64,000 nucleotides of DNA, taken from Gammaproteobacteria bacterium (GTDB lineage Bacteria; Pseudomonadota; Gammaproteobacteria; Eutrophobiales; Eutrophobiaceae). Position numbers and translations under genes: made by a program. The notes beneath the pieces were generated by a model. That model had not been told where the DNA came from. It saw nothing but the letters and a program-made list of their open reading frames with translations, and made no database searches. Shown piece by piece: positions 4,807 to 26,033 of the stretch. Each line of letters begins with the position of its first letter. The stretch's first letter is position 1. The stretch spans positions 20,206-84,205 of the forward strand of contig JANQNX010000010.1 in assembly GCA_028279365.1 (NCBI GenBank), read 5' to 3'.

Positions 4807-5400
4807 TTAAATCAATTTCCTTCCATCCATGGCATGTGCAATGGTCATACTGTTGACGTATTCCAACTCACCTCCCATGGGAATTCCGTGTGCAATACGT
4901 GAAACCTGTTTGCCTTTGGCTTTGACCATCTCACTAATAAAATGCGCAGTCGCTTCGCCCTCTACGGTCGTATTGGTGGCCAATATCACTTCTTTTAATT
5001 CTTCATCATCAAGCAATTGTTGAAACTGATTCAACCCTATATCTTCAGGGCCAATCCCATCCAGTGGAGAAAGATGTCCTAATAATACGAAATAACGCCC
5101 GCGATAATTTGAATCTTCAATCGCATCGACATCGGAGGGATTTTCAACTACGCAAATCATACTGTTATCGCGCTTACTACTCTCACAAAGCTCACAGATA
5201 GGTCGTTCGGTGAAGGTTCGACAGCGCTGGCAATGACCAATGTTTTCCATTGCCTGTGCCATGATTTTGGATAAATGTTTTGCACCATCACGATTACGCT
5301 GTAGTAAGTGATGGGCAATACGCTGTGCCGATTTTCGTCCGATGCCGGGCATGCAGCGTAATGCTTCAATCAATTGTTCAAGTAAACTTTGTTCAACCAT
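4807..5400 (-). CDS. recR: Recombination protein RecR
   Basis: Helix-hairpin-helix N-terminus (LRCMPGIGRKSAQRIAHHLL), C4 zinc finger (HCQRCRTFTE…CELC), Toprim domain (VVENPSDVDAIE…GRYFVLLGHLSPLDGIG). Confidence 0.95.
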   Translation of the reverse strand: MVEQSLLEQLIEALRCMPGIGRKSAQRIAHHLLQRNRDGAKHLSKIMAQAMENIGHCQRCRTFTERPICELCESSKRDNSMICVVENPSDVDAIEDSNYRGRYFVLLGHLSPLDGIGPEDIGLNQFQQLLDDEELKEVILATNTTVEGEATAHFISEMVKAKGKQVSRIAHGIPMGGELEYVNSMTIAHAMDGRKLI

Positions 5401-5448
5401 TCAACAGGAACAATAAAGATAGGTATTAGATTCTTAAATAACGAACAG

Positions 5449-5769
5449 TTAAAACGGAAGTTTCATGCCGGCAGGCAAGCCCATACCCGAGGTTAAACTG
5501 GACATTTTTTCCTGCGTCATTTTTTCTACTCGTCGATTCGCATCGTTCACCGCTGCCGCGACCAGGTCTTCAATCATTTCTTTATCGTCATTCATCAGTT
5601 GTGGATCAATCTCAACACGCTTGACATCATGAAGACCGTTCATTGTCACCTTAATCAAGCCGGCACCCGATTCGCCAACCACTTCTGTATCCGCCAATTC
5701 CTGCTGCGCTTTTTCAACATTGGCCTGCATTTCCTGCGCCTGTTTCATGATATTGCCTATGCCTTTCAT
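5449..5769 (-). CDS. ybaB: Nucleoid-associated protein YbaB/EbfC
   Basis: 106 aa. [15 protein letters not shown]…[11 protein letters not shown]…[11 protein letters not shown] is typical YbaB. Sits in the canonical dnaX-ybaB-recR operon position. Confidence 0.95.
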
Positions 5770-5801
5770 TACATTACACCTCTTGATATTTTGTTCTAAC
5801 G

Positions 5802-7469
5802 TTAACCTGGCTGAATCGAGTCCTTATCTATCGTTGCGTCGAATGTATCGACAATCGATTGTACTGTTTGATCATTACTGACGGAGAGTTCTGCGGCTTT
5901 TTGTTTTTCGCGTTCGTGCCGGACACGGGACTCGGCCGGTGTCTCACTTGATGGATCTTCAATAGCCACTAACAATTTCACGTTTTCACCAAAACGCACT
6001 TTGATCGCCTGCTCCAGACGTTCTTTTTGAATGCTGTTAAGTAAATGTTCCTGTGACGGCGACAATGCCAGCTCTACCTTGTCTTTAGTATGCGCTTTAA
6101 GCGCACAATGACCGGCAAGTTCTTTGACCAGTCCGACTAATGCCATCTCATCAATAATCGTTTTCCAATCATTATCATCATAACCTGTTGAAGCCGAGTG
6201 CTCAGTTATAGGCCGAGCCTGTTCAATAGCTTCATCACTCGTCTCAACATCTACATCTCTTTCAACTGGCTTAGGTGCTTCAGCTTGTCTAGCATTTTCA
6301 GTTGTATCAGTGTCTGGCGATGTCTGAACCGTTGCTTTGCGTGGAGCGATCGACTGGACGGGAGCATCAGGAATTTCGTTATTTGATACGGGGCGAAATG
6401 CCAACATGCGAATCAAGGTCATTTCAAAACCGGATTTCACATCCGGCGCAAGATATAAATCCTTTCTTCCTTTTAATGCAATTTGATAATACAACTGTAC
6501 ATCTTCCTTGCTCATTGCCTCTGCAAACGCTACCAGCTCTGCATGTTGTCGCAACGGATTATCGACATCATTTGGTAGAGCCCGAAGCGTCGCGATCTTT
6601 TGCAGCAGGCTTAGCAACTCGGATAGCAGTCCATCAAAATCAGGATTTTGTAATGCAATCTCCTGAACTATGTTTAACAAAGATTCGGCATCGGCATCGA
6701 TCAAAGACTGTATTAATCCATATAAGTCAGCACTATCAATCGTGCCCATCATTGCGCGCACCTGTTCCTCTTTCAAAGCACCGCCGCCATAGGCAATAGC
6801 CTGATCCAGCAAACTTAATGCATCACGCATACTCCCCGCTGCTCCACGAGCTATTAGTTCCGTTGAACCTTGATCAAACTCTATCGACTCTTGTTTCAAT
6901 ATCATATTGATCTGTTCGGCGATTTGTTCCTGCGTTAAGTGACTCAGGTTAAATTGCAAACAGCGAGAGAGAATCGTGACCGGTAATTTTTTTGGTTCGG
7001 TTGTCGCAAGCAGAAACTTCACATGCGGCGGTGGCTCCTCCAATGTTTTCAACAAGGCGTTAAAACTGTGATTGGAAAACATGTGTATTTCGTCAATCAG
7101 ATAGACTTTATAGCGACCGCTGGTCGGCGCATACTGGACGTTTTCCATTAACTCACGGGTTTCATCGACTTTGGCGCGAGACGCCGCATCGACCTCAATT
7201 AGATCAACAAACCGGCCCTCGTCAATTGCTACGCATGCAGGGCAAACGCCACAAGGCGTTGAGCTCACTCCAGTTTCGCAATTCAGACATTTTGCCAGGA
7301 TGCGAGCCAGTGTGGTTTTACCTACGCCACGCGTGCCAGAGAATAGATAGGCATGATGCAAACGATCCTGATCCAGCGCATTTTCCAGCGCTTTCAGCAC
7401 ATGAGATTGCCCCACCATATCAGCGAAAGAACGAGGCCGCCATTTACGCGCAAGTACTTGATAACTCAT
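5802..7469 (-). CDS. dnaX: DNA polymerase III subunit tau/gamma
   Basis: Walker [10 protein letters not shown]. Zn module [21 protein letters not shown] box. SRC motif (TILSRCLQF). Confidence 0.95.
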
Positions 7470-7587
7470 TGATTATTATATGTATTGAAAATATCTAACT
7501 GGCAGGAAAGTTTGCCAAAAATAGCATGATACATGAGGCAGTAATCGCGGCAAGTCTGGCTGCAAAATAGCCGAAAAATAAGGAGGC

Positions 7588-7700
7588 AACCCGCACCGTC
7601 CCGACCCCGGCACACAACTCCACTGCTGCCGCTGCTCCCTTCCGGGCCTGACGGGGTTCACAATTTCGTGTTGCGGGGAGACCGGCACGGGTCACCATAA
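7588..7700 (-). ncRNA. ffs: Signal recognition particle RNA (4.5S RNA, ffs); boundaries approximate
   Basis: The minus strand reads …TCTCCCCGCAAC…CCCCGTCAGGCCCGGAAGGGAGCAGCGGCAG…GTGTGCCGGGG…. This matches the conserved E. coli 4.5S domain IV (GGUCAGGUCCGGAAGGAAGCAGC) and its flanking helices (UCUCCCGCAAC / GUGUGCCGGGAU). Located directly upstream of dnaX on the same strand. Confidence 0.85.
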
Positions 7701-7797
7701 ACAGGGAACGGATGGTATCAATTACGACAGGTTTTGGACACTGTAATTATGCGGTTTCCGCTTTCCGGTAAAGTCAAAAAATGACCTATCGAACGTT

Positions 7798-8604
7798 TTA
7801 TTTATCCCGTTTTCTGAGGATAAATACCGCATATTCTGTTTTGGCATCAGGAACGATTGGATGAGTCAGGTCATAATATTCATCCACGACGGTTTCGATA
7901 GTAAAACCTGCCTTTGTGATCAGACTTTTAAATTGAGTTAAGCTGTAGGTACGGAGTTCATAACTCGATTCATGTTTATAAATATGTTTATCCCCCTTCG
8001 CTTTTAATTTAATACCGAGCTGTTCACGACGTTGATTTACGTCTAATGAAAGTTGACGCATGCTGGTTTTCACCTGCAGACGCCCACGTCTGGCTGTCCA
8101 CTTTATCGGTTGCTGTGAAGGTTTATTTCCCACTTGCAGATGCATACCCAGGATATAAATACCGCCAGGCTTTAACATCCTGGAAGTATTGATTAAATGC
8201 TCCAATGCCGCTTGCTCTGTTAATAAATGACGAAAGGTATCGACGGTGCAAAACGCTGCATCATATTTTCTGCCCGTTTGTTTAAACGACACCATGTCGG
8301 CTTCGTATATACGCGCATCGATGCAGTTTCGATTGAGTTTATTGATTAGGTAATTCAACGCGTGGGTATTAATGTCATAACCCTCACACCGAAAGCCGGC
8401 ACGACTCAAGGGCAAGATTAATCGTCCTGTACCGCAAGCTGGTTCAAGCAATCTAGACGAATTGCCTTTGCAATAATGACGCAAAGCCTTAATAAGAAAA
8501 TCCAGTTCAGGACGCATTTCATGCGAAAAAGACACGTCGTAATAAACTGGCAGGTTATACCAACTATGATTCGCGTCCGTTTTGGATTGGTTTCGTTTTA
8601 ACAA
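7798..8604 (-). CDS. Class I SAM-dependent methyltransferase
   Basis: 268 aa. Motif I LEPACGTGRL, then an acidic residue at the end of beta-2 (GYDIN). Confidence 0.8.
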   Translation of the reverse strand: MLKRNQSKTDANHSWYNLPVYYDVSFSHEMRPELDFLIKALRHYCKGNSSRLLEPACGTGRLILPLSRAGFRCEGYDINTHALNYLINKLNRNCIDARIYEADMVSFKQTGRKYDAAFCTVDTFRHLLTEQAALEHLINTSRMLKPGGIYILGMHLQVGNKPSQQPIKWTARRGRLQVKTSMRQLSLDVNQRREQLGIKLKAKGDKHIYKHESSYELRTYSLTQFKSLITKAGFTIETVVDEYYDLTHPIVPDAKTEYAVFILRKRDK

Positions 8605-8613
8605 GTTGGATAA

Positions 8614-9342
8614 TTAATGAACAATAACGTGCTCGACGATATGCAGGTCTTTACCCGTAGCTGCGATAGCTGATTCATAGTCAGGAATCTTTGTCGCGTT
8701 ATAACTATACCACTGCGCCTTTAGTTGTTTATCTGAGTTCACTGTTATTGGAACGGAAACAGCTTTCTCCTCTGATGGAACACTAAATTGATCCAACCCG
8801 AATGACACACCCGAGCCCTCGCCTTTGATGAATGCCTCCTTGCGCGTCCAAATTCGATAAAACGCATCGAGCCGTAATTCAGGATCTATTGAAAGCAATT
8901 GTTGATATTCCGCATCACTAAAAAAACGTTTCGCTAGCGATAGATAATCTGTATTTGAGTTAATTGCTTCAATATCAACCCCTACCTCACAACCTAATGT
9001 AAACGCAAGCAGTGCCAGGTTATTTGAGTGGGAAACATTAAAGTAAATTGACTTACCGACATAACGATAATTAACCAGTGGTTTGCCGTGATCATTATAT
9101 TGAAACACAATAGCCTCCGGACGCGTATCTACCAGACAGCGTGACAACAGTTCCCGTAATAATGCACGCGTAATAATAAACTGCTGTTTTTTTGAATCCA
9201 GCTTGAGTTTTTTTGCCCGGTTCAGTTCATCATCATTCAGGCATTCACTTAATAGCGCATGATCAAACAAACCAAGATCAATTAAATAACATACGATTTT
9301 ATCATCAGCTAATTTAATCTTATCTGGAAAAAACTGTCGCAT
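8614..9342 (-). CDS. 4'-phosphopantetheinyl transferase (Sfp/EntD type)
   Basis: 242 aa. GVDIE metal-binding motif and W-x-x-KEAFIK motif (WTRKEAFIKGEG). Confidence 0.8.
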   Translation of the reverse strand: MRQFFPDKIKLADDKIVCYLIDLGLFDHALLSECLNDDELNRAKKLKLDSKKQQFIITRALLRELLSRCLVDTRPEAIVFQYNDHGKPLVNYRYVGKSIYFNVSHSNNLALLAFTLGCEVGVDIEAINSNTDYLSLAKRFFSDAEYQQLLSIDPELRLDAFYRIWTRKEAFIKGEGSGVSFGLDQFSVPSEEKAVSVPITVNSDKQLKAQWYSYNATKIPDYESAIAATGKDLHIVEHVIVH

Positions 9343-9344
9343 AG

Positions 9345-10355
9345 TTAGTTATCATTCAGCGATGCTGCTAAGAGTTCCATACCTTTAGAGATAGACACCG
9401 CAGGTGAATAATTCAACTCCTTTTTCGCCGCGGACAAATCAAACCAATGGTGTGTAGAAAGCTGTCGCGCGACAAAACGCGTCATGATCGGTTCCTCTTG
9501 TCTACCGAGTAAACGATAAATCGTTTCCAAAACTGCACCCACAGCAAAGGCAAGCCCAACAGGAACTGTTTTAGTAACAGCCGGTAAGTTGGCAGCCGTC
9601 AATATTTGATTAAGCAAACGTTTCATTTCGATAGGTTCATCATTACTAATAAAATAGGCACGCCCGTTAGCGTTTGGATTCGTTTCTAATGCCGTTAATG
9701 CTTGAATATGTGCCAGCGCCGCATTATCAATATAACAAGAGTCCACTTTATTATCGCCATTACCAACCAGTTTCAATTTACCCATGCTGGCTCGCTCAAT
9801 CACCCTGGGGACTAAATGCGGATCGCCCGGCCCCCAGATTAAATGGGGTCGTAGGGCTATGGTTTTTAATGCATCAGAATTAGCTTTCAACACAAGCTGT
9901 TCGGCTTTAGCTTTGGTTTTTTGGTAGACATTAAAAAAATGATTCGAGTAAGGCTCAGTCTCATCTATACCCTCTTCATCCGTGCCATCAAATACCACAC
10001 TGGGCGTACTGGTATAGATTAAGTATTCGATCTTATTCTCATCACAGGCAGTCAGTACATTCTCAGTCGCGATAACATTCGCTTCATAGTAATCCTGCTC
10101 ATCACCCCATACGCCCGCCTTGGCCGCCACATGAAATATGGCATCGCAACCAACGCTGGCCTGTATCACTTCATCCCTGTTTTTTAAATTCCCGATAACA
10201 GTCTCCGCACCCCACTCGCGAAGCTGTGGATAATCACCACGCTGATAAGTGATTACCTGATGCTGTTGATCAAGCAATTGTCGAACAATGGCCTTGCCTA
10301 AAAATCCACCACCGCCTGTGACTAACAGTCTCATCCGATTTGTGTTGCTGCCCAC
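9345..10355 (-). CDS. NAD(P)-dependent epimerase/dehydratase, 3beta-hydroxysteroid dehydrogenase family reductase (OleD-like)
   Basis: 336 aa. N-terminal Rossmann fold LLVTGGGGFLGKAIVRQLL. YxxxK-type catalytic region (YQKTKAKAE). Lies immediately downstream of, and overlapping, the OleC-like gene. Confidence 0.75.
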   Translation of the reverse strand: MGSNTNRMRLLVTGGGGFLGKAIVRQLLDQQHQVITYQRGDYPQLREWGAETVIGNLKNRDEVIQASVGCDAIFHVAAKAGVWGDEQDYYEANVIATENVLTACDENKIEYLIYTSTPSVVFDGTDEEGIDETEPYSNHFFNVYQKTKAKAEQLVLKANSDALKTIALRPHLIWGPGDPHLVPRVIERASMGKLKLVGNGDNKVDSCYIDNAALAHIQALTALETNPNANGRAYFISNDEPIEMKRLLNQILTAANLPAVTKTVPVGLAFAVGAVLETIYRLLGRQEEPIMTRFVARQLSTHHWFDLSAAKKELNYSPAVSISKGMELLAASLNDN

Positions 10356-11989
10356 ACAGCCAGTTTTTCGCGACCAATCTTGGCATTGTGTCGAATATCA
10401 ACTGGAAACGAAGGGTGAAACAATACAGTCTCTATCAATCCAGTTATATCATGTTGTTTTGCTAACTCGAGCAATTGTTTGGTTAATTGGTTTTTATCCG
10501 GCTGTTGTTGATCGACTTCAAGCTCCACACAAATGATCGGCCTGGTCTTATCTGCCTGGGTTACGCCGATCAGTGCCGAACGAAACACGTCGGGATGTGC
10601 ATTAAATATCCCCTCACAACATGCCGTATGCAATGTCACACCATCGACCTCGACCCGTTGACTCTTACGACCGCAAAACCAGAGCCGACCCTGTTCGTCA
10701 AGATAGCCAGTATCACCCATGCGATGATAGAAACCATCCTCGTCATATATCTTGGCCAGTTCTGTTGCGCTGTGTCGATTGTAATACGCGTGCGTGACTT
10801 GTGAGCCTTTAACACATATCTCACCAATTTGATTTGCGCCTAACTTTTCAATTGATGACCATTGCTTAATGACGTCATCGGTAATGTTTATGATTTCGAC
10901 GTTAATACCCTCAACCGGTTTGCCGACACACACACCTTTGCCAGTTGCGGTCATCTCAGCCGTTTCAGTCAAGACTTCGTGACTGCCTATCGAACTGACC
11001 GGGAGTGATTCGGTAGCGCCATAGGGCGTATAGATTTGTGTTGTTTCATTTAATAAACATTGAAAATTGTTCAGGATAAGATCTGACACCGGTGCACCCG
11101 CCGACAATACCCTTTTTAATGTTTCAAAATGCAATGACGTGTTTTTCGCATACTTGCCAACGCGATTTAATAAGGCTGGGGAACCAAACATATTCGTGCA
11201 TCGATAATCCTTGATAGCCGCAATAATAGTTTCGGGATCAACATAACCCGGACGGGTAAAATCCATTTTAGGAATAATCGATGTCATACCCAGTGCCGGC
11301 GCAAATAAGGCAAATAAAGGAAATGTCGCTAGATCTACCTCACCCGCTTGAATGTTATACAGTGACTTTAGCGCATTTACCTGAGCGGTAAAATTTGCAT
11401 GCGTATACATGACACCTTTAGGAATTCCGGTACTGCCACTGGTAAATAAAATGGCGGCATCGTCCTCCGGCTGAGTATCGCGTTGAAAAGCATCATGAAT
11501 ATGGTTTTGTTTAGTCTGCTCTAAGGTAGTGAAAAAGGGTCGTAACAAAAAAGAACCGCCAACCAATATGGTGCGTTTGATGGTTTGTCTACCCCAGCCT
11601 AATATGAGTCTTGCCAGCTGTGCAGATGGAATACCAATAAACGCGTCCGGCTCAGCCTCTTCCAGACACTTACCCAGGTTTTTCATCCCTATACCGGGAT
11701 CAACGGCAACCAGTATCGCTTCGACTTTAAACAAGGCAAACACCAGTACAAAAAAATCCAGACCGGGTTTGACCATTAATACCGTACGTGTGCCCTTACC
11801 TATCCCTTGTTGCATTAAACCATGCGCAACCTGATCGCTTTGTTGATTCAGCTGCGCATAGTTAAGGCTGTGCTGATACTTGTTTTTGTCATCGTTAAGC
11901 ATTTGCTCAACGACAGCATACTGTTCTGGCGCGTGTTTGGCTCGTTCCGGAAGATGAGACGCGATGTTGGCAGTTATCATGGCAAACAA
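10331..11989 (-). CDS. AMP-dependent synthetase/ligase (acyl-adenylate forming; OleC-like)
   Basis: 552 aa. AMP-binding signature LFTSGSTGIPKGV and the C-terminal adenylation core. About 1 nt from the OleB-like stop. Confidence 0.8.
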   Translation of the reverse strand: MFAMITANIASHLPERAKHAPEQYAVVEQMLNDDKNKYQHSLNYAQLNQQSDQVAHGLMQQGIGKGTRTVLMVKPGLDFFVLVFALFKVEAILVAVDPGIGMKNLGKCLEEAEPDAFIGIPSAQLARLILGWGRQTIKRTILVGGSFLLRPFFTTLEQTKQNHIHDAFQRDTQPEDDAAILFTSGSTGIPKGVMYTHANFTAQVNALKSLYNIQAGEVDLATFPLFALFAPALGMTSIIPKMDFTRPGYVDPETIIAAIKDYRCTNMFGSPALLNRVGKYAKNTSLHFETLKRVLSAGAPVSDLILNNFQCLLNETTQIYTPYGATESLPVSSIGSHEVLTETAEMTATGKGVCVGKPVEGINVEIINITDDVIKQWSSIEKLGANQIGEICVKGSQVTHAYYNRHSATELAKIYDEDGFYHRMGDTGYLDEQGRLWFCGRKSQRVEVDGVTLHTACCEGIFNAHPDVFRSALIGVTQADKTRPIICVELEVDQQQPDKNQLTKQLLELAKQHDITGLIETVLFHPSFPVDIRHNAKIGREKLAVWAATQIG

Positions 11990-11990
11990 G

Positions 11991-12887
11991 CTATGCCTGC
12001 TGACTTACATGCTTCTCAAGAAAATCACTGATGACGGGAATCACTTCGTCGCCCGCATCTTCCAACAAGTAATGGCCAGCATCGTATTCATGATATTCCG
12101 CATTCGGGAAACGCTGTTTCCATTCGTTCAGAAAATCATGATCAAAGACAAAATCGTTCAAGCCCCAACAAACCATTAGTGGTAATGCTGAAAACTGTTG
12201 CAGATTTCGATCAACCTCATCAACAATGGAATAAGTCACATGCTGTTCATCTAACGGGATATCCTCAACAAAACGTAATACGGATAAGCGCGCCGCCCAA
12301 CAATCATGTGGGTAGAGATAAGCTGTCGCAACGGAGTTTGTCATCGGTGCGCGTGTCACACACTGCGTAACAGCTCCGCGACAAAAGGCATTGAAACCCT
12401 GAATTAATACTTTGCCTAATAGTGGAATACGACTTAACTTTAATTGCCACGGAATCGCTTTATTAGTAGGAATATGAAAACCGGCGGTATTAGAAACGAC
12501 CAGGCACTTTATCTTGTCCGGGTAACGTGTCGCATAAGTTAGACCAATCATGCCGCCCCAATCATGTACGATCAGGGTAATCTTGTCGCTGGTTTCCAGG
12601 CTGGACAATAACGCATCCAGATCATCGACCCGTTGTTGTAGGGTAAACGAATAATTGCTATCCGATGGCTTATCGGATAAACCCATACCAATGTGATCCG
12701 GCACAACACAATGATACTGTTCTGTCAGTTTAGTAAACAGCTTTCGATAGTAAAACGACCAGCTCGGATTACCATGTATCATGACCACGGTATCGGCATG
12801 CTTGATACCTCCTTCCAGATAATGCATACGAAGATGATTGACCGTGGTATAGCGAGACGAGTCAGACGGGTAATCCGGAAATTGCAT
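11991..12887 (-). CDS. Alpha/beta hydrolase of the haloalkane-dehalogenase-like subfamily (OleB-like)
   Basis: 298 aa. HGNPSWSFYYR oxyanion region. Asp nucleophile elbow VHDWGGMIGL. C-terminal catalytic His (AGHYLLED). Confidence 0.75.
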   Translation of the reverse strand: MQFPDYPSDSSRYTTVNHLRMHYLEGGIKHADTVVMIHGNPSWSFYYRKLFTKLTEQYHCVVPDHIGMGLSDKPSDSNYSFTLQQRVDDLDALLSSLETSDKITLIVHDWGGMIGLTYATRYPDKIKCLVVSNTAGFHIPTNKAIPWQLKLSRIPLLGKVLIQGFNAFCRGAVTQCVTRAPMTNSVATAYLYPHDCWAARLSVLRFVEDIPLDEQHVTYSIVDEVDRNLQQFSALPLMVCWGLNDFVFDHDFLNEWKQRFPNAEYHEYDAGHYLLEDAGDEVIPVISDFLEKHVSQQA

Positions 12888-12967
12888 AGGTTTTTTCGTT
12901 GGAAAGCGTTAACAGCTAGCTAGTTTACTGAATAATAAAGCAATCACCAAACCTGCAAGACGAGTAA

Positions 12968-15412
12968 CTAGTGCATAGGTGGCTTTAATAACAACACTAA
13001 TGCCGGTACCAGCAATAGATCACCGAGTAAGGCCACGAACATGGCAAAGCCGGTCAATAAACCAAAATAAATGGTCGGAATAAAATTGGAAAACGCCAAC
13101 AATGCGAAACCAAAGATAATGGCAGTCGATGTGTAATACATGGCCTTCCCTATGCCACCATGGCAACGGTTAATCGTTTCCAGGTAGTTATGATCCACCG
13201 GGAATTCCTGTTGTAATCGATGTATATAATGAATCGTATCATCCACCGAGATACCAATAGTAATCGCGGCGATAGTGATGGTCATCATATCCAGCGGGAT
13301 CGCTAAATACCCCATCAAGCCCAGGATTAATGCCGCCGAAAATATATTCGGAATAATCGCAATCAATGACAATGCCAGATTGCGAAACAATATAATGAAC
13401 ATAAACAGGATGGCAGCAAACACAGCGCCAATGGTCAGGATTTGCGAACGAAACAGACTTTGCAGCATGTTGTTATACAACACCAGCATACCGGTAAGCT
13501 GAACCTGATCCTTTTCAAAGCCTAATTCCTCGGTTAAATGTCGATCAATATCTTTCAACATCTGGTCGCGATTCAGGTTGGGATCAGACTCAATCACACG
13601 CATGCTAAAACGTGCCTGATTATTATCTTCCGAAAGATAAGGCCGAATCATATCGTCAGCAATCGATTGCGGCACGCGGTTATTAATAACAGCCAATTCA
13701 AAATCGTCCAACGGTTGGCCGTTCAGTTTCTCAACAATATCCATCGTTGTGACAATAGACAGCACCTTACCCATAGACGATACATTGCTCAGGTAATCAT
13801 TGACCTGCTGCGCTCGACGAATCATATCGGCATTCAACCAGTAACTCGGTTCCGGCTGACTATCATCAGCATCGAAAAACAAGGCATCCAATTCACTATC
13901 AGTCTCGGCCAACTCCTGCTGCACTTCAATGAAATCCCGATCAGGATCGATAATTAAATCGAGCGGCATGGTACCGCCAAGTTGATGATCAATAATCTGT
14001 AGGCCCTGATAAATTTCCGTATCCGATTTAAAGTTATTGATAAATCGATTTTCGACTTTTAATTCCGGGATACCGAGCGCAAACGAAACGATAAGCGTGA
14101 TACCCAGTGCGACAATCAGTTTGGGATGGTGATCGACTTTTTTAGCCAACCATAATGTGATTGCACGCGTAATATTTTTTCTGGTTGAAATATTCATTTC
14201 ACCAAACAGCGATAACAAGGCTGGCATAAAAGTAAAGCTGACGACAAACGCGACTGACAATCCAATCACCATGATCCAGCCAAAGTCGATGACCGGACGA
14301 ATCTCGCTGATCACCAATGATGCAAACGCAACCGCTGTCGTTAACACCGTATAAAAACACGGCCTTACCATCGATGCGACGGTTGCCTGAATCAACTCAT
14401 TATGCGTTAACGCAGGATGCTGCATTTGTAAATCGCGATAACGCACAATCAAATGAATGTTCAGCGATAGTGTAATGATTAACAGAATCGATAAAAAGTT
14501 TGATGAAATCACTGTCACCGGCCAGTCGTTAAATCCAAGTATCCCGGTAGTAATCAGACCGGTGATGGAACAGACCAGTAACGGCAAGATAACCCAGCGT
14601 GGGGAATGAAAGAACAGCGTTAGAATAATAATCAAAAATAAGACAATACCGCTGCCAAATACAATCAGATCATTTTGAATAAACTGCAACATGTCGACCG
14701 TTATCATCGGAATGCCACCCAGATAGAGCTGACCGAATTCACGATGATTATCAATAATCGCGCGAATAGCAGCGATATCAATTTCGCGTTGTTCATTAAA
14801 CAACCTGTTCTGCACGCTTATCTGCTGATTAAGCAGTGTCAGGTCTTCCCCTTTTTCCCGAGCAGCATCGCGTTTATCCAGTAAGTCATAATAATCGTTA
14901 TGCCGTTTAAACAAGGCCTGTATCGCAGTAATTTTGCCATCGTTGCTAACCAGTAAATTCTGATACAGTGGATTATGCTGGAACTCTTCTTTTGCCAGCG
15001 CTATATCAACGTTGTTGTTTGATAACATCGGTAAAGTCGATTGTAATTCCGACAGTGATAATCCCGATTGATAAATAATCGGTACATCAAGAATGGACGT
15101 GACCGATTCGATATTATCAAGACGCAGTAATTCTGTTTTTATCGATTCAATCGCCGCCAACGACTCCTCAGCAAATAAACCCGTATTCGGCGCAAACGTA
15201 ATGATGACAAAATCATCCGAGCCGTAACGCTTGGTGATTTCTCGGTAATAATCGAGGCTGGCATCATTTTCCAATACCAGTGAATCGGCAGATGCATCCA
15301 GTCTGAATGACTGGGCGTAATTTGCCGCGAGGATAATAAACAGTAAATAACAAAACAAAACCCATAACGGCTTTTGCAGCACTAGCCGCTGAAAGGTTGC
15401 TGGTAAATTCAC
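12968..15412 (-). CDS. RND-superfamily MMPL-type lipid exporter (HpnN-like)
   Basis: 814 aa. Two blocks of about 6 TM helices, each followed by a large periplasmic loop. Confidence 0.8.
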   Translation of the reverse strand: MNLPATFQRLVLQKPLWVLFCYLLFIILAANYAQSFRLDASADSLVLENDASLDYYREITKRYGSDDFVIITFAPNTGLFAEESLAAIESIKTELLRLDNIESVTSILDVPIIYQSGLSLSELQSTLPMLSNNNVDIALAKEEFQHNPLYQNLLVSNDGKITAIQALFKRHNDYYDLLDKRDAAREKGEDLTLLNQQISVQNRLFNEQREIDIAAIRAIIDNHREFGQLYLGGIPMITVDMLQFIQNDLIVFGSGIVLFLIIILTLFFHSPRWVILPLLVCSITGLITTGILGFNDWPVTVISSNFLSILLIITLSLNIHLIVRYRDLQMQHPALTHNELIQATVASMVRPCFYTVLTTAVAFASLVISEIRPVIDFGWIMVIGLSVAFVVSFTFMPALLSLFGEMNISTRKNITRAITLWLAKKVDHHPKLIVALGITLIVSFALGIPELKVENRFINNFKSDTEIYQGLQIIDHQLGGTMPLDLIIDPDRDFIEVQQELAETDSELDALFFDADDSQPEPSYWLNADMIRRAQQVNDYLSNVSSMGKVLSIVTTMDIVEKLNGQPLDDFELAVINNRVPQSIADDMIRPYLSEDNNQARFSMRVIESDPNLNRDQMLKDIDRHLTEELGFEKDQVQLTGMLVLYNNMLQSLFRSQILTIGAVFAAILFMFIILFRNLALSLIAIIPNIFSAALILGLMGYLAIPLDMMTITIAAITIGISVDDTIHYIHRLQQEFPVDHNYLETINRCHGGIGKAMYYTSTAIIFGFALLAFSNFIPTIYFGLLTGFAMFVALLGDLLLVPALVLLLKPPMH

Positions 15413-15425
15413 GTTGCTTAACGAA

Positions 15426-16046
15426 TCAGGGGATTACACTGCACTCTGAAAAACTCTGCGAAAAACCAAAGATGCCCTGATGTTTCACTTTTCGCGCGAA
15501 GATTTTTTTATAGGTCTTGACCAAACTGACATTATCAATCACTAAATCTACTACCTTCCAGCTGTCACCATCAGGGCGCATAGGATATTTGATGGTCAGG
15601 GGTTTTGTCTCCGGACGAGTCAAGGTCTGGGTGATAGAAATATAATCTTTTCTTGCTTCCGGTATTGCAGATTGATAACTGATATTCTGGTTACGGTAAG
15701 CCAGTAACACATAAGCATAACGTTCAATTAATAAATTACGAAAACCGGCGCTGACACAGGTTTGCAAGTCATGATCTAATTGCTTCCAGTCTGATGACAG
15801 CGTCATTGCGGTCATCATGGTAAAATCCATGTGCGGTACGATTAACTCTCTTACGATCTGTTTGATTTGTGCCGGGTCACGTTCCAGTGCCTGTTGTTCG
15901 GATTCGAGTCGTTGTAATACTTCCTGTGTCGTATCGTAGACAATTTCATCCGCTGACAATGCAAGCACATGATTTGGGATCAAACTGATTAGCATTAAAA
16001 CAAATAACAATGAACCCACTACCGTTAGATCTGTTGTCTTCCCCAT
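15426..16046 (-). CDS. MlaC/Ttg2D-family periplasmic lipid-binding protein (HpnM-like)
   Basis: 206 aa with signal peptide. C-terminal WKVVDLVIDNVSLVKTYKKIF matches the MlaC core (WKVYDV…GVSLV…YR.QF). 13 nt upstream of the MMPL gene on the same strand. Confidence 0.65.
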   Translation of the reverse strand: MGKTTDLTVVGSLLFVLMLISLIPNHVLALSADEIVYDTTQEVLQRLESEQQALERDPAQIKQIVRELIVPHMDFTMMTAMTLSSDWKQLDHDLQTCVSAGFRNLLIERYAYVLLAYRNQNISYQSAIPEARKDYISITQTLTRPETKPLTIKYPMRPDGDSWKVVDLVIDNVSLVKTYKKIFARKVKHQGIFGFSQSFSECSVIP

Positions 16047-16148
16047 CTTCTAACCCACCTTTTTTAACCTATTAATCATTTAGTATTACTCCATGAACAT
16101 TGGGCCACCTTGATCAAGATCAAGCATCTTTCCGGCACAATACGTAAG

Positions 16149-16529
16149 CTATTCTGAATTTAACCAGGCTCTGGCCTCGTCAATTTGATCCAGTGAAAAA
16201 ACCCTGACCTTGCAAGGAAGAAATGCACCGGCTGCCTTACTAAAAGGACCAATCCAGCCTGAATCCGTCAATACGGCACAATGACTGAAATCCTTCATAT
16301 GCTCAATATCAAATAATATCCCTTCCCATAGTACAGATGGATCAAAACCATCAAATTCACGAATCTCTTCCAATAATTTTATCTTACCGTAGTTATCGAT
16401 AAGCTCTTCCATCTCATCCGCAACGCGATCAAAATCCTGCTGTGTAATTTTTCCATCAACAATAATCTCAATCCTTTTTTCCTCCGGGAAGATACTGTAT
16501 TCCGTTGCCATGATAAACCTCCTGCCCAT
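16149..16529 (-). CDS. STAS/SpoIIAA-like (DUF3478-type) small protein
   Basis: 126 aa. Size and predicted beta-alpha arrangement are STAS-like. Sits upstream of the MlaC-like/MMPL genes. Confidence 0.5.
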   Translation of the reverse strand: MGRRFIMATEYSIFPEEKRIEIIVDGKITQQDFDRVADEMEELIDNYGKIKLLEEIREFDGFDPSVLWEGILFDIEHMKDFSHCAVLTDSGWIGPFSKAAGAFLPCKVRVFSLDQIDEARAWLNSE

Positions 16530-16642
16530 ACGAGCATTCGTTTTCTATGCGCAAGATATGGTATAAATTAATCTAATAATAATGAATTAAAATTATAACG
16601 CTCATTATTCTTTTCGAATGATTCCACCTGACTATTCTATCC

Positions 16643-17839
16643 ATGTTATATGACGTCATTATTATCGGTGCGGGCGCATCCGGGCTGTTATGCGCAATCA
16701 CGGCCGGTCAACGTGGACGCAATGTGTTGGTATTGGATAGCAGTAACAAGGTTGGCAAAAAGATACTGATGTCCGGTGGTGGACGATGCAATTTTACTAA
16801 CCTCAATATCCAACCCGAGCGTTTCCTGTCGCATAACCCGCATTTTTGCAAATCGGCACTGAGCCAATATACACAATGGGATTTCATCCAACTGGTAGAA
16901 AAACACGATATTGCCTATGAAGAACGCAAGCATGGGCAATTATTTTGCCAACACTCTTCCAGGGATATCTTGGCGATGCTGGTCAGAGAATGTGAGCCAC
17001 TGCCTGTCACCATACAAACGCATTGCAATGTTGAAACAGTCTCGGCTGTCCCTGATGAAGATAATGGAAACACGTATTATCTAAATACCAATCTTGGAAA
17101 ATTCAGCGCCGGCAGTCTCGTTATTGCATCCGGTGGCCTCTCGATTCCGAAAATGGGCGCGACCAATTTTGGCTATCGTATCGCCAAACAATTTAAGCTC
17201 GCTGTGCATCCTACCCGTGCCGGCCTGGTGCCGTTCACTTTCAGCGATCATTTCAAACAAATATTTGCGCGCCTGTCCGGTGTATCTCAGGCAACGACAT
17301 TATCAAATACCCGAGCCACGTTTCAGGAAAACATTCTTTTTACCCACCGAGGACTAAGCGGTCCGGCCGCATTGCAACTCTCCAGCTATTGGCAGGAAGG
17401 CGAGACGATTAACGTGGATTTATTAATGCACGACATGACAGATGCATTGCTTGATGCGAAACGACAAAACCCTAACATGCTGCTGCGGAATATCTTTGCC
17501 TCGTATTTCACCAAGACATTAATTTCAGAACTGGAAACTTTATTCTGGCCGGACTGGCAACACAAACCGATTGCCGACATTCCCGACAGAGTGTTGAAAA
17601 CGATCAGTCATCATTTATCAAACTGGCAGTTAACCCCCTCCGGCACAGAAGGTTATCGAACAGCCGAAGTCACGCTGGGCGGTGTCGACACTGATTATTT
17701 ATCCTCTAAAACGATGGAATGCAAGCATCAGCCAGGACTTTATTTCATCGGTGAAGTGGTTGATTTAACGGGACATTTGGGCGGCTATAACTTCCAATGG
17801 GCCTGGTCTTCTGGCCATGTTGCTGGCTTAAGTGTCTAG
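16643..17839 (+). CDS. HI0933/YhiN-family FAD-dependent flavoprotein (BaiN-like)
   Basis: 398 aa. N-terminal FAD fold DVIIIGAGASGLLCAI and GGGRCNFTN motif. Confidence 0.85.
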   Translation: MLYDVIIIGAGASGLLCAITAGQRGRNVLVLDSSNKVGKKILMSGGGRCNFTNLNIQPERFLSHNPHFCKSALSQYTQWDFIQLVEKHDIAYEERKHGQLFCQHSSRDILAMLVRECEPLPVTIQTHCNVETVSAVPDEDNGNTYYLNTNLGKFSAGSLVIASGGLSIPKMGATNFGYRIAKQFKLAVHPTRAGLVPFTFSDHFKQIFARLSGVSQATTLSNTRATFQENILFTHRGLSGPAALQLSSYWQEGETINVDLLMHDMTDALLDAKRQNPNMLLRNIFASYFTKTLISELETLFWPDWQHKPIADIPDRVLKTISHHLSNWQLTPSGTEGYRTAEVTLGGVDTDYLSSKTMECKHQPGLYFIGEVVDLTGHLGGYNFQWAWSSGHVAGLSV

Positions 17840-17950
17840 GTAATTAAAGACATCTTGTATTTTGCCGTTATTAGTCCTAGAAGCGAAAAAAGCGTAATTA
17901 GCTAGTTCAGCGGTTACATATAAACCAACACTTAAATAAGAGTAAATACT

Positions 17951-18871
17951 ATGTCGAATAAAATTCTCTATATATTAGTACCTGATGATCATATCAGTCC
18001 ATTTGACGTAACGCTGGCCACTGATGCGGGTTTCACCCAAATCCTTCCATTTACTGGCGTTGAAATTAAAGACGTCATGCCGATGGTACAGGATGCGATT
18101 TTCTGTCGTCCTCCTAAACGATTTAACGATACTGGCATATTCATCGGTGGTCGTGATGTGCATATGGCAACCGACATGTTCCAGAATGCAAAGAATGCCA
18201 TGGTAGGAGATTTTCAGGTAGGGGTATTCGCCGATCCGAATGGTGCCTACACTACATCAGGCAGTATTGTTGCCCTCGTCGAACAATCCCTTGAAATGAA
18301 AACCGGTAGTGGGCTGAAAGGTCGTTCTGTGGCTGTCTTCGGCACCGGGCCAGTGGGGTTATCTGCCGCGGTTTTGAGTGCGCAAGAAGGGGCAGTCCCC
18401 ATGTTATGTCAGCTAACCGCTGATGATGATAAAGATGTTGCCAATCGTTTCTGCGAACGCTTTAATGTGAATGTTCCCTGGGTTAGCGCACAAACACATG
18501 AAGAAAAAGTCGAGATTGTAAAATCTGCTGAAGTGATTATCAGTGCTGCTAAAGCTGGTATTCGCATATTAGGAAAAGAAGAACTCGATTACGCGGAAAA
18601 CCTGTTAGTGGCTGCGGACACCAATGCAGTCCCTCCTTCAGGTATTGAAGGGATTGATGCACATGATAAACATAAAAATGTGAAAATGGAGAAAGCAGAG
18701 TTTAATGGTATCGGCTCTTTAGCTATCGGCAACCTGAAATACAAGACACAATTTGGTCTGTTTGAACAAATTCAGCAGGCTGAAACAGCCGCGTTACTGG
18801 ATTTTAGAGAAGCTTATGAATACGCGGCAACCGAGTTACACCGAGCCGACAAGAAAAAACAGGCCGCATAG
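17951..18871 (+). CDS. NAD(P)-dependent methylene-tetrahydromethanopterin dehydrogenase (MtdA/MtdB family)
   Basis: 306 aa. Colinear with the Mtd family as I recall it: ILYILVPDDHISPFDV…IFIGGRDV…GRSVAVFGTGPVGLSAA…IDAHDKHKN. Confidence 0.7.
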   Translation: MSNKILYILVPDDHISPFDVTLATDAGFTQILPFTGVEIKDVMPMVQDAIFCRPPKRFNDTGIFIGGRDVHMATDMFQNAKNAMVGDFQVGVFADPNGAYTTSGSIVALVEQSLEMKTGSGLKGRSVAVFGTGPVGLSAAVLSAQEGAVPMLCQLTADDDKDVANRFCERFNVNVPWVSAQTHEEKVEIVKSAEVIISAAKAGIRILGKEELDYAENLLVAADTNAVPPSGIEGIDAHDKHKNVKMEKAEFNGIGSLAIGNLKYKTQFGLFEQIQQAETAALLDFREAYEYAATELHRADKKKQAA

Positions 18872-18989
18872 CGCATGTCATTGAACAAGGATGTTCAATC
18901 AACTTTTAAGCTTTAATACTAATACCCCCTTCCCTACTTAAACGCATTAACGGGTTTCTATCTTGCACTAATACTTATACTATTAGTAC

Positions 18990-19898
18990 ATGAAATTGAA
19001 CCAGTTGGTGCTGTTTCTACTATGTTGCACAAATGCACTGCATACATTTGCGCAAGAAAAAATTGACCTTGATATAAATGGCATCAAGATGCAGTTCGTC
19101 ACGATACCTGCCGGTGAGTTCATCATGGGTGATAAAGACGGACAACGTGACGAGCGCCCGCGACACCCGGTATCGATTGATTCATTCTATATGCAGACCA
19201 CGGAAATCACGGTGGAGCAATTCGATATCTTTGCTAATGCAACCAATCACCCCACAAACTTCGGCTGCTGGTACTTTAATAGTGGCTGGCTGTTTTCAGC
19301 AGAACTGAACTGGCGCAATCCCGGTTATCCGCAACAACCTAATCATCCTGCGGTTTGTATCAGCTGGAATGATACCCAGCAGTTTATCACCTGGTTAAAT
19401 CAGCAACAGCAGGAGTATCGTTTTCGATTACCGACAGAGGCTGAATGGGAATACGCTGCACGCGCCGGTTCCCATGAACGTTACTATTGGGGTAGTGACC
19501 CAAGCGGCTTATGTACCCATGCCAATGCATCGGATAAACAAACCTTAAAACATTTTCCCAGTTTCAGGAGCAATGATTGTGATGATGGTTATGTGGAAAC
19601 TTCACCAGTAGGCAATTACCTAGCCAATTCTTATGGGTTATTTGATGTGTATGGCAATGCGTGGGAATGGACCCAGGATTGCTGGCACGAAAGCTATTCG
19701 CATGCACCGGAAGATGGCAGCGCCTGGGAGGGAAACTGCATGCGTCGCGTATTTCGCGGCGGCGGTTGGGGCGACAATCCTAAATTCGCGCGCTCGGGCT
19801 TACGTAACCGCACCGAGGCCAATAAACACAAAGACGATATTGGCTTTCGATTAGTGCTTGAAATAATTAACAATAAACCGGACTCTACAGCAAATTAG
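18990..19898 (+). CDS. Formylglycine-generating-enzyme (FGE/SUMF1) family protein, secreted
   Basis: 302 aa. Signal peptide. FGE-sulfatase domain motifs (RLPTEAEWEYAARAG…RGGGWGDNP). Confidence 0.85.
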   Translation: MKLNQLVLFLLCCTNALHTFAQEKIDLDINGIKMQFVTIPAGEFIMGDKDGQRDERPRHPVSIDSFYMQTTEITVEQFDIFANATNHPTNFGCWYFNSGWLFSAELNWRNPGYPQQPNHPAVCISWNDTQQFITWLNQQQQEYRFRLPTEAEWEYAARAGSHERYYWGSDPSGLCTHANASDKQTLKHFPSFRSNDCDDGYVETSPVGNYLANSYGLFDVYGNAWEWTQDCWHESYSHAPEDGSAWEGNCMRRVFRGGGWGDNPKFARSGLRNRTEANKHKDDIGFRLVLEIINNKPDSTAN

Positions 19899-20108
19899 TG
19901 CGGCCATCATGTTTTTAAAGACATGCGCACTCGTGTTAAACCTTACAAAACGGGTGAGTTAAAAGACTACGTTAGACTCTACAACCCGTTTGAAAAACAG
20001 AAACCAAGAAAAGAATCCGCATAAAAGCTATGGCTATTTGATACAGTCAAAGTTGAGTGAAAAGTTTAAAGAATTTGCGGGTTACTGAAGAATAATGCAG
20101 TTCAAGAA

Positions 20109-20513: not shown

Positions 20514-20542
20514 TAGACTGATTCCACTTTAAAAAGTTATAG

Positions 20543-20878: not shown

Positions 20879-20958
20879 TTTTATTACACAAATCGTATTG
20901 GTTGTTTACTTAAGGCCATAGTATAAAACCTGTTTTTTCTAATATTAAGTCAGGATAT

Positions 20959-21165: not shown

Positions 21166-21245
21166 ATTCAGCTTTTTTGTCAACATCACTCAAGACAGTG
21201 AATACGAAACCATAGAAATAATGTAGATATACCCTTCTATTTGCT

Positions 21246-26030: not shown

Positions 26031-26033
26031 ATT

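Follow-up and report, generated by a model that had tools for sequence, protein, structure and literature searches.

The eight closely spaced minus-strand open reading frames (ORFs) at positions 7798-16529 of the window, i.e., the whole 64-kb stretch of DNA analyzed here, are likely to represent two units made adjacent by rearrangement, and hence a known system in a rearranged setting rather than a new pathway. The first unit (7798-12887) would be the oleBCD-phosphopantetheinyl transferase (PPTase)-methyltransferase (MTase) half of a Pfa-synthase/Ole route to a long-chain polyunsaturated hydrocarbon, and the second unit (12968-16046, perhaps together with the STAS-like gene at 16149-16529) would comprise a MlaC-like carrier and an HAE3/MMPL RND transporter that are conserved independently. 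This reading follows from the position of a known oleBCD part, which has left its customary partner genes and moved beside a transporter pair occurring separately in relatives.

The first-pass annotation of this DNA had described eight co-directional, packed minus-strand genes, and the description is borne out together with the claimed families and motifs, including HDWGG and TSGSTGIPKGV, both of which are present in the translated ORFs (Table 1). Its account of tight spacing holds within two groups, in which gaps are 1-13 nt [MTase-PPTase, 9 nt, or as much as 96 nt should translation start at the later ATG chosen in the public gene call; PPTase-OleD, 2 nt; OleB-OleC, 1-10 nt; MlaC-MMPL, 13 nt] and oleC overlaps oleD, but it had left unquantified the gaps between MMPL and OleB (80 nt) and between the STAS-like gene and MlaC (102 nt), which exceed the spacing inside both groups. 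Neither a terminator-like hairpin nor a consensus promoter on the coding strand was detected in the 80-nt gap; co-transcription of the first unit with the transporter genes is thus plausible here.

Table 1. Features of the locus, with positions in the window.
Feature	Position	Strand	Basis
Class I SAM methyltransferase (MTase)	7798-8604	-	Methyltransf_25/23/11 (Pfam)
Sfp/HetI-type PPTase	8614-9342	-	Pfam ACPS + AASDHPPT_N
Predicted OleD, 3beta-HSD/SDR	ORF 9345-10355; likely gene 9345..10334	-	NCBIfam best match OleD
Predicted OleC, AMP-binding	ORF 10331-11989; gene 10331..11980 from ATG	-	Olefin beta-lactone synthetase models
Predicted OleB, haloalkane-dehalogenase-like alpha/beta hydrolase	11991-12887	-	Abhydrolase_1 + orthology
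MMPL/HAE3 RND transporter	12968-15412	-	Pfam MMPL, TIGR00921
MlaC family	15426-16046	-	Pfam MlaC
SpoIIAA-like PF11964, STAS clan	16149-16529	-	Pfam
SRP (4.5S) RNA gene	7591..7687	-	Rfam RF00169, 64 bits

The oleBCD block and its companions

The three enzymes had been proposed to be OleB, OleC, and OleD in canonical order, and HMM searches, model scores, and 59-71% identity to OleA-linked genes support true orthology. The putative OleB, a beta-lactone decarboxylase as judged from its sequence, scores below cut-off on the Abhydrolase_1 and haloalkane dehalogenase models; the Asp of its HDWGG motif and the His of a C-terminal GHY align with dehalogenase-fold structures, and it is 67-71% identical to the products of oleB genes that follow oleA in five related loci (L002, L006, L011, L012, and L093). 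The predicted olefin beta-lactone synthetase OleC comprises 549 amino acids from the ATG at 11980 and matches database protein P0001 exactly. Its bit scores are 666 on NF045785 (olefin beta-lactone synthetase) and 643 on NF045786, and the generic ligase model PRK09274 (727 bits) is the sole model placed above olefin beta-lactone synthetase. The OleA-linked orthologues of L006 and L011 obtain the same sub-cut-off scores, and identity to OleA-linked orthologues is 60-65%. Furthermore, 36 relatives agree without exception at 156 alignment columns, and the window OleC conforms at all of them (156/156), a retention as good as, or better than, that of OleA-linked relatives; OleC is hence under purifying selection. 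The predicted NADPH-dependent 2-alkyl-3-oxoalkanoate reductase OleD finds its best NCBIfam match in the model of that name (NF042423, 483 bits; NF042422, 414 bits), with scores within the range of OleA-linked orthologues, to which it is 59-65% identical. Except for the generic model noted for OleC, the best matches of OleC and OleD are therefore those expected of the two Ole enzymes; both proteins fall below the NCBIfam equivalog cut-offs, and OleA-linked orthologues do likewise. The true start of OleD is likely to be the ATG at 10334, giving a 4-nt overlap with the oleC stop that is also present in relatives.

The PPTase (HetI model, 145 bits; best PDB match, Sfp) shares 41-52% identity with the PPTases encoded after oleD in pfa-oleABCD clusters, and is predicted to be a PfaE-type enzyme that activates the PfaA ACP domains. 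The MTase has weak matches only to named NCBIfam models and to PDB methyltransferases, and is approximately 50% identical to a methyltransferase encoded 0-4 kb beyond the PPTase gene in seven loci (L002, L006, L011, L012, L013, L015, and L093); it is a clade-specific conserved companion of the ole/pfa cluster.

In relatives, the oleBCD-PPTase(-MTase) block stands directly after pfaA-pfaC-oleA, and the five window proteins share 41-71% identity with the products of such pfaA-pfaC-oleA-oleB-oleC-oleD-PPTase(-MTase) clusters (L002-4, L006, L011-15, and L093). Among the OleC loci whose upstream sequence extends to 4 kb or more (n = 46), OleB was found upstream in 37/46, a strong OleA match in 31/46, and a PfaC-like synthase in 26/46. 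Downstream, among the loci covered for 2.5 kb or more (n = 56), OleD was found in 52/56, a PPTase after OleD in 20/56, and the MTase in 7/56. An earlier alternative, an Ole-type head-to-head condensation fed by the ACP of a PUFA synthase encoded elsewhere, is where these comparative data point. The suggestion of a new pathway or undescribed cluster is not sustained, as the pfa-ole clusters of relatives correspond to the known Pfa-synthase/Ole route, whose variable linkage has been published (PMC3098273, PMC6463001).

The transporter pair and the insertion

The MlaC-family protein (Pfam MlaC, 124.5 bits) bears a hydrophobic N-terminal signal-like segment and is 54-63% identical to MlaC proteins paired with MMPL in L008 and L010. 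The transporter (Pfam MMPL, 125 bits), which the public gene call begins 10 codons later (804 aa), has its best subfamily match in TIGR00921 HAE3 (152 bits, yet below cut-off) and shows 63-66% full-length identity to the MMPL proteins of L008, L010, L095, and L096. A likeness to HpnN/HpnM had been noted; the shared architecture stands, but both proteins fall far below the cut-offs of those models: MlaC scores 58 bits on HpnM (cut-off, 160), and MMPL scores 115 bits on HpnN TIGR03480 (cut-off, 752) and 80 bits on NF052374 (cut-off, 1100). On the MlaC model PRK15117, the MlaC-family protein is likewise sub-cut-off (59 bits; cut-off, 195). HpnN is the closest solved structure to MMPL, with an E-value of only 5e-11 over one transmembrane bundle. 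The STAS-like protein (PF11964, 102 bits) has no NCBIfam match, its nearest PDB entries are the uncharacterized proteins 2ook and 2q3l, and its gene is absent beside MlaC-MMPL in L008, L010, L095, and L096.

In five related loci (L008/9, L010, L095, and L096), MlaC-MMPL occurs among unrelated neighbors with no ole genes nearby, and sequence comparison thus identifies the pair as a separately conserved two-gene unit. L096 belongs to the same assembly as the ole locus L006, on a different contig, and L010 lies approximately 800 kb from the ole locus L011 on a single contig. The window and L010 share a collinear gene order that runs from fliA through cheW, DUF2802, tRNA, MlaC, MMPL, SRP RNA, dnaX, and ybaB to recR (cheW-tRNA-MlaC-MMPL-SRP RNA-dnaX-ybaB-recR in L010), with breaks at the ole block and at a roughly 10-kb segment after the tRNA. 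In L010 the SRP RNA gene is located 59 nt after MMPL and before dnaX; in the window it is the backbone feature bordering the ole block on its downstream side, and the block sits exactly within the MMPL/SRP-RNA spacer. Against this collinear backbone, the 5.2-kb ole block stands out as inserted DNA, with MMPL on one side and the SRP RNA gene on the other.

The same junction is found in L007, in which an intact oleBCD-PPTase is preceded by a C-terminal remnant of MMPL (residues 701-814, 73% identity, with an in-frame stop) and, upstream of it, by a STAS remnant (a protein match and a 59-nt nucleotide match at 78% identity, E 1e-8); no oleA was found within 10 kb. The OleC proteins of the window and L007 are 64% identical, and a junction common to lineages so diverged indicates that the arrangement has been long-lasting in at least one of them. 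These remnants indicate that the STAS-MlaC-MMPL-oleB junction is old and the transporter dispensable in L007.

Proposed route and alternative readings

By analogy with the characterized Shewanella and Xanthomonas systems, the PPTase would load phosphopantetheine on PfaA at its tandem ACP domains, the Pfa synthase would produce a polyunsaturated acyl chain, and OleA would condense two chains head to head into a 2-alkyl-3-ketoacid, which OleD would reduce with NADPH, OleC would close into a beta-lactone in an ATP-driven reaction, and OleB would decarboxylate to a cis-olefin. We infer that oleA and pfaA-D are probably located elsewhere in the genome, outside the window. The second unit probably moves some envelope lipid between membranes; its ancestral place would be beside SRP RNA-dnaX-ybaB-recR, and the ole block would have entered the MMPL/SRP-RNA spacer in a common ancestor of this lineage and that of L007.

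The first-pass annotation had instead favored a fused biosynthesis-plus-export system, in which MlaC-MMPL and the STAS-like protein would have been enlisted to carry the Ole hydrocarbon or an intermediate from the inner to the outer membrane and all eight genes form one unit. The co-direction of the genes, the 80-nt gap devoid of terminator or promoter signals, the inheritance of the junction in two deeply diverged lineages, the co-occurrence of OleC with this MMPL subfamily in several genomes, and the proposal that RND and MlaC-like pairs traffic other neutral lipids (hopanoids via HpnN/HpnM; PMC12324291) would fit it. However, neither MMPL nor MlaC was found near OleC in any informative locus (0/46), the pair stands apart from ole genes in all five relatives' loci, the collinearity with L010 makes the ole block the insertion, and in L007 the transporter and STAS genes have decayed beside an intact oleBCD-PPTase. 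Moreover, for large OleC-bearing contigs, e.g., that of P0053 (2.75 Mb), no corresponding contig appears among the best 120 MMPL homologues. We consider such an export operon unlikely.

The absence of OleA and ACP from the window, claimed earlier, was confirmed: tblastn and a search of all ORFs in the 64 kb with an OleA profile and AcpP revealed no OleA-type thiolase, PfaC-like synthase, or other KS, and no ACP (best OleA-profile E-value, 0.35). Together with the lack of a nearby oleA in L007 and an MTase with no known role in the classical pathway, this could suit a genome devoid of oleA, in which OleD-OleC-OleB would use 2-alkyl-3-keto or 3-hydroxy acids from another source, e.g., a PPTase-primed carrier-bound intermediate, and yield another olefin or a beta-lactone-derived lipid, possibly methylated. 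This appears distinctly improbable. The orthology of the enzymes to OleA-linked OleB/C/D is straightforward, and nothing in them points to altered specificity; the same PPTase and MTase accompany complete pfa-oleABCD clusters, and the separation of ole from pfa genes has ample precedent (PMC3098273, PMC6463001). In L011, oleA and oleB are already parted by two unrelated genes. Least probable of all is a non-functional leftover of lost pfa and oleA genes heading to decay. The missing genes and the rearrangement and gene decay around L007 would agree with it, but all five ORFs are full length and tightly spaced, OleC has lost none of its invariant residues, and OleB/C/D retain 60-68% identity to the L010/L011 genome, close to dnaX (69%) and below recR and ybaB (79-81%). 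The rearranged Pfa/Ole reading is accordingly preferred.

Comparison with known systems

In Shewanella oneidensis MR-1 and Photobacterium profundum SS9, OleABCD is coupled to the Pfa (PUFA) synthase and yields the polyunsaturated hydrocarbon 31:9 (PMC6463001, PMC3098273); ole genes frequently accompany pfa-type clusters, yet may also be encoded at other sites, and the placement of pfaE and oleABCD varies (PMC3098273, PMC6463001). The present locus shares with these systems the B-C-D order, the C/D overlap, and the PfaE-type PPTase, and its relatives link pfaA-pfaC-oleA-oleBCD-PPTase; by contrast, it lacks oleA and pfaA-D, has the conserved MTase, and shows no pfaT thioesterase. Relative to the Shewanella-/Xanthomonas-type equivalogs, OleC scores 666 bits against 850 and OleD 483 against 580, and the whole uncultured gammaproteobacterial clade is likewise below cut-off. 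Lipstatin and nocardiolactone clusters of the oleACD type (PMC7064751) share the chemistry of an OleC-type synthetase and an OleD-type reductase, although they keep oleA without oleB, whereas the present locus has oleB without oleA and is orthologous to olefin-type clusters.

The second unit resembles HpnN/HpnM (PMC12324291) in encoding an RND/MMPL transporter beside a MlaC-family periplasmic lipid binder, likely for an inner-to-outer-membrane relay, although the proteins are not orthologous (all model scores are sub-cut-off) and no MlaA-like HpnS gene is adjacent. With the Mla system (MlaFEDB-MlaC-MlaA) it shares the MlaC family, and the nearby small STAS-clan protein superficially recalls MlaB. 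However, MlaF, MlaE, and MlaD genes are absent, the STAS-like protein belongs to PF11964, matches no MlaB model, and is not conserved beside the pair in relatives, and the membrane partner is of the RND/MMPL type.

Identity of the genes in the ole block

The eight minus-strand ORFs described in the first-pass annotation are all present where it placed them, as are the HDWGG and TSGSTGIPKGV motifs and the 1-13 nt spacings that it quoted; longer gaps separate MMPL from OleB (80 nt) and STAS from MlaC (102 nt). Four plus-strand ORFs of 82-139 aa are antisense to MMPL, OleD, and OleC, and because their antisense-frame tblastn matches in relatives mirror the conservation of the sense genes, they look like shadow ORFs rather than genes.

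Features of the window, with family assignments and model scores
Feature	Position	Strand	Assignment or remark
HpnL-family membrane protein	2687-3676	+	LPG_synthase_TM type; TIGR03476, 253 bits (cut-off 196)
353-aa ORF	3740-4801	-	Ends 5 nt downstream of recR; no Pfam/NCBIfam match
SRP RNA	7591-7687	-	Bacterial small (4.5S); between methyltransferase and dnaX
Class I SAM methyltransferase	7798-8604	-	Methyltransf_25, 45.5 bits (Pfam/NCBIfam)
Sfp/HetI-type PPTase	8614-9342	-	Pfam ACPS and AASDHPPT_N; HetI model 145 bits (cut-off 370)
OleD-like 3beta-HSD/SDR protein	9345-10355	-	2-alkyl-3-oxoalkanoate reductase NF042423, 483 bits, and NF042422, 414 bits (cut-off 580)
OleC-like AMP-binding protein	10331-11989	-	Olefin beta-lactone synthetase NF045785, 666 bits (cut-off 850), and NF045786, 643 bits (cut-off 900)
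Haloalkane-dehalogenase-like alpha/beta hydrolase (OleB)	11991-12887	-	Dehalogenase model scores under cut-offs
MMPL/HAE3 RND transporter	12968-15412	-	MMPL, 125 bits
MlaC-family protein	15426-16046	-	MlaC, 124.5 bits
Antisense ORFs	10288-10536, 10487-10804, 11529-11834, 13538-13957	+	
Extra segment of about 9.9 kb	16047-26033		Between MlaC and tRNA-Ser
STAS-like gene	16149-16529	-	PF11964 SpoIIAA-like, 102 bits; in extra segment
Flavoprotein	16643-17839		Aminoacetone-oxidase family; in extra segment
Mpt_N protein	17951-18871		Methylene-tetrahydromethanopterin dehydrogenase N-terminal; in extra segment
FGE-sulfatase/PvdO-like protein	18990-19898		In extra segment
DUF6647 protein	22091-22987		In extra segment; 46% identical to gene beside L011 ole cluster
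PAS-GGDEF-EAL protein	23110-24873		In extra segment
tRNA-Ser	26034-26124		
MotA/MotB genes	29086-30725		Missing from L010 gene list
Flagellin	59438-61918	-	826 aa

The assignment of three enzymes to OleB, OleC, and OleD is borne out by neighbourhood comparison, which shows the five genes of the ole block to be orthologous to the oleBCD-pfaE-methyltransferase part of pfa-ole superclusters. In Thiotrichaceae MAG loci [L002-L004, L006 (GCA_041689615.1), L011, L012, and L093], the common order is (pfaA-like)-pfaC-like-oleA-oleB-oleC-oleD-PPTase, where the pfaC-like synthase (KS-CLF-DH-DH) has about 2200 aa and OleA 399 aa, and the same methyltransferase lies 0-4 kb beyond the PPTase in Thiotrichaceae clusters of this kind. 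A metagenome scan supplied 80 further OleC loci for combined neighbourhood counts, in which a locus was informative if its sequence reached 4 kb or more upstream of OleC (46 loci) or 2.5 kb or more downstream (56 loci). Upstream, OleB was present in 37 of the 46, a strong OleA match in 31, a PfaC-like synthase in 26, and MMPL or MlaC in none; downstream, OleD was present in 52/56, the PPTase in 20/56, and the window-type methyltransferase in 7/56.

The window OleC is 60-65% identical to its OleA-linked orthologues, as is OleD (59-65%), a 2-alkyl-3-oxoalkanoate reductase of the SDR/3beta-HSD family. OleB shares 67-71% identity with the products of the oleB genes following oleA in relatives, and its HDWGG Asp, the nucleophile, and GHY His align with dehalogenase-fold structures. 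The PPTase, of PfaE type, is 41-52% identical to that closing the pfaA-pfaC-oleABCD clusters, and the methyltransferase is about 50% identical to that of relatives' ole clusters. OleC falls outside the strict NCBIfam equivalogs, whereas its orthology to OleA-linked OleC holds; against the generic PRK09274 model it scores 727 bits (cut-off 478). Since OleC of the OleA-linked loci L006 and L011 scores equally on the NCBIfam models (640-665 bits), and OleD of OleA-linked orthologues scores in the same range as the window OleD, scores under the cut-offs are characteristic of the clade and are no argument against Ole identity. Furthermore, the window OleC retains 156/156 columns invariant among 36 relatives, so oleC is under normal purifying selection.

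Read from ATG, the window OleC is identical to a database protein (P0001) on a 5.9-kb Logan contig (SRR20820731); no entry exists for the version starting at TTG. The nearest relatives of P0001, only about 65% identical, belong to uncultured Gammaproteobacteria/Thiotrichaceae, and JGI gives several of them the name olefin beta-lactone synthetase; among species-representative contigs searched with OleC, only an unrelated Christensenellaceae ligase matched. No NCBIfam model matched by OleB is named for OleB, no chain among the PDB sequence matches is labelled OleB or OleC, and the PDB search with the methyltransferase returned nothing informative. An ordinary fatty-acid CoA ligase, sugar epimerase, and esterase were rejected as identities, the three genes being co-conserved with oleA in relatives.

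Conserved genes lie downstream of the ole cluster in three relatives (L002, 15358-21491; L006, 17431-21546; L012, 18367-21650), encoding a CDP-alcohol phosphatidyltransferase, YdjC, a B12/radical-SAM enzyme, and a family-2 glycosyltransferase, together with an LPG_synthase_TM protein in L002. The set resembles the hpnI/J/K/L hopanoid side-chain genes, and none of it was found in the window apart from the HpnL-like gene, which is 70% identical to the gene downstream of the L002 cluster, is oriented likewise with respect to the ole genes, and may preserve an earlier synteny with the ole block.

Junction of the ole block with the MlaC-MMPL pair

A MlaC gene lies immediately upstream of every full-length MMPL homologue (61-66% identity), and no ole genes occur within 10 kb of any of them. 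The pairing, with a 13-nt gap in the window, is conserved in L008, L010, L095, and L096: it is flanked by crp and an amino-acid permease in L008/L009, adjoins ABC/MacB genes in L095 and unrelated genes in L096, and is followed by SRP RNA-dnaX-ybaB-recR in L010. L096 and the ole cluster L006 belong to one assembly on separate contigs, and L010 and the ole cluster L011 are about 800 kb apart on a single 2.85-Mb contig. Because these MMPL relatives are paired with MlaC away from ole genes, comparative gene order shows the pair to be an independent conserved unit and establishes its ancestral position. The STAS-like gene is beside the pair in none of these relatives (L008/L009, L010, L095, L096), and a PDB sequence search with its protein gave nothing informative.

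The window is collinear with L010 through fliA, cheY, cheZ, cheA, cheB, parA, two cheW genes, DUF2802, and the tRNA, and collinearity continues through MlaC, MMPL, SRP RNA, dnaX, ybaB, and recR; the MotA/MotB genes are extra in the window. The 5.2-kb oleB-oleC-oleD-PPTase-methyltransferase block is likewise extra and occupies precisely the interval from the MMPL stop to the SRP RNA promoter region, whereas the L010 SRP RNA (12511-12607) comes right after MMPL. As read from this collinearity, the geometry is that of an insertion of the ole block between MMPL and the SRP RNA gene. Repeats flanking the block are limited to short matches inside coding sequence, probably due to chance, and no mobile-element signature was found there.

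The segment of about 9.9 kb between MlaC and tRNA-Ser is absent from L010, its GC content drops to 35-37% at 20-26 kb, and it may be a variable island beside the tRNA. The flagellar/chemotaxis regulon fills roughly 27-62 kb, and at its end lies an unusually long flagellin with a very large central region and normal Flagellin_N and Flagellin_C ends.

The age of the junction is indicated by L007, in which STAS-like and MMPL remnants (8575-9036) lie directly upstream of intact oleB-oleC-oleD-PPTase. The MMPL remnant spans residues 701-814 (the last 114 codons) at 73% identity, carries an in-frame stop, and is closer to the window MMPL than to any other; over the same residues, intact MMPL homologues share 81-86% identity with the window protein. 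The STAS remnant is situated just upstream of the MMPL remnant and matches residues 39-63 at the protein level (78% nucleotide identity over 59 nt, E 1e-8). These remnants imply that the order STAS-MlaC-MMPL-oleBCD-PPTase was already present in an ancestor shared by the window and L007; from this window-like arrangement, L007 then lost about 3 kb by deletion, and with it most of its transport genes, while its ole genes stayed intact. As judged from these two loci, the junction is old, yet the Ole module can do without an adjacent transporter. In L011, two unrelated opposite-strand genes (choice-of-anchor I and Polyketide_cyc2; 5395-10004) lie between oleA and oleB, and the breaks in the window, L007, and L011 suggest that the oleA/oleB boundary is a recurrent breakpoint.

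OleA, the carrier protein, and competing explanations

The absence of OleA from the window, claimed in the first-pass annotation, holds for all 64 kb by tblastn and by OleA profile (best E-value 0.35), the profile and phmmer searches having covered every ORF of at least 40 aa. Neither a PfaC-like synthase (tblastn) nor an ACP (search of all ORFs of at least 40 aa) was found in the 64-kb window, and the multidomain pfaA-D synthase genes (KS, AT, tandem ACP, KR, DH, ER) are not in it, the longest ORF having 826 aa. The puzzle of a PPTase without a carrier nearby, raised in the first-pass annotation, is explained by the relatives, in which the carrier domains are the PP-binding domains of the PfaA-like synthase of the same cluster. 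Probably, oleA and pfaA-D lie elsewhere in the source genome, because oleBCD are intact and conserved and a PfaE-type PPTase is retained. The OleA homologue P0142, the likeliest candidate, was rejected as the OleA of this genome, as it belongs to GCA_028281365.1 (SRR20820735), a different assembly that has a complete oleA...oleBCD cluster of its own; the OleA homologues considered were the best 120, at least 76% identical, a set that a more divergent OleA would fall outside.

By analogy with the characterised Xanthomonas and Shewanella Ole/Pfa enzymes (summarised in PMC6463001, PMC7064751), the PPTase would prime the ACP domains of PfaA, and the Pfa synthase would supply a polyunsaturated acyl chain. 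Two chains would then be condensed by OleA, the 2-alkyl-3-ketoacid would be reduced by OleD, OleC would form the beta-lactone, and OleB would decarboxylate it to a cis-olefin membrane hydrocarbon. OleA-independent chemistry, to which a window without oleA might point, is very unlikely, as the enzymes are unremarkable orthologues of their OleA-linked counterparts. That the locus is a decaying relic is very improbable, since its ORFs are intact and their residues conserved, although rearrangement and decay have occurred close by.

The first-pass annotation had proposed a fused locus for biosynthesis and export. An integrated operon of this kind would fit the co-directional genes and the old junction shared with L007, but the pairing recurs in 0/46 OleC loci and 0/5 MlaC-MMPL loci of relatives and the transporter has decayed in L007, so that this reading is unlikely. 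In the 80-nt MMPL-OleB gap, neither a consensus promoter on the coding strand nor a terminator-like fold (z = +1.15) was detected; read-through transcription is therefore possible, and the export hypothesis retains some, albeit low, probability. It is quite doubtful that the MlaC-like carrier and HAE3/MMPL protein, possibly with the PF11964 protein, were co-opted in this lineage to traffic Ole-derived hydrocarbons and are co-transcribed with oleBCD. Transport of Ole hydrocarbons by MlaC-MMPL is not favoured by present evidence, a literature search for ole and MMPL yielded no paper linking the two, and the comparative evidence is that the link is positional. If true, co-option would make this the first trafficking system devoted to polyunsaturated membrane hydrocarbons of Ole origin and would bear on where and how these neutral lipids are placed in the envelope.

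Relation to known systems

A known pathway is present here in rearranged form, and little follows from the locus as it stands. The first-pass annotation did not recognise the gene combination as a described cluster; this kind of system is known and its variable linkage is published, and the window represents a rearranged member of an uncharacterised clade. The Pfa-synthase/Ole linkage leading to a 31:9 polyunsaturated hydrocarbon is established in Shewanella. According to the literature, pfaE and oleABCD can be clustered with pfa or placed elsewhere, and ole configurations vary between genomes of the same pfa type (PMC6463001, PMC3098273). What the comparison adds is, first, that an uncultured marine gammaproteobacterial clade carries the pfaA-pfaC-oleABCD-PPTase genes as a compact supercluster, accompanied by a conserved but unexplained methyltransferase, and, second, that a conserved MlaC and HAE3/MMPL pair, a putative lipid transporter, is widespread in the same bacteria.

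This pair belongs to neither of two known lipid transport systems. Membership of the Mla system was rejected (MlaC PRK15117, 59 bits against a cut-off of 195): Mla comprises the MlaFEDB ABC transporter and an MlaB-type STAS protein, whereas the window shares only the MlaC domain, its membrane partner is MMPL, and its STAS-like protein is of PF11964 without an NCBIfam match. The HpnN-like and HpnM-like labels of the first-pass annotation likewise give way, the scores being far under the cut-offs for HpnN (TIGR03480, 115 versus 752 bits; NF052374, 80 versus 1100) and HpnM (TIGR03481, 58 versus 160). HpnN is nevertheless the only PDB relative of the MMPL protein (E 5e-11), and the window resembles the HpnN/HpnM hopanoid pair in that an RND transporter gene adjoins the gene of a MlaC-like periplasmic protein.
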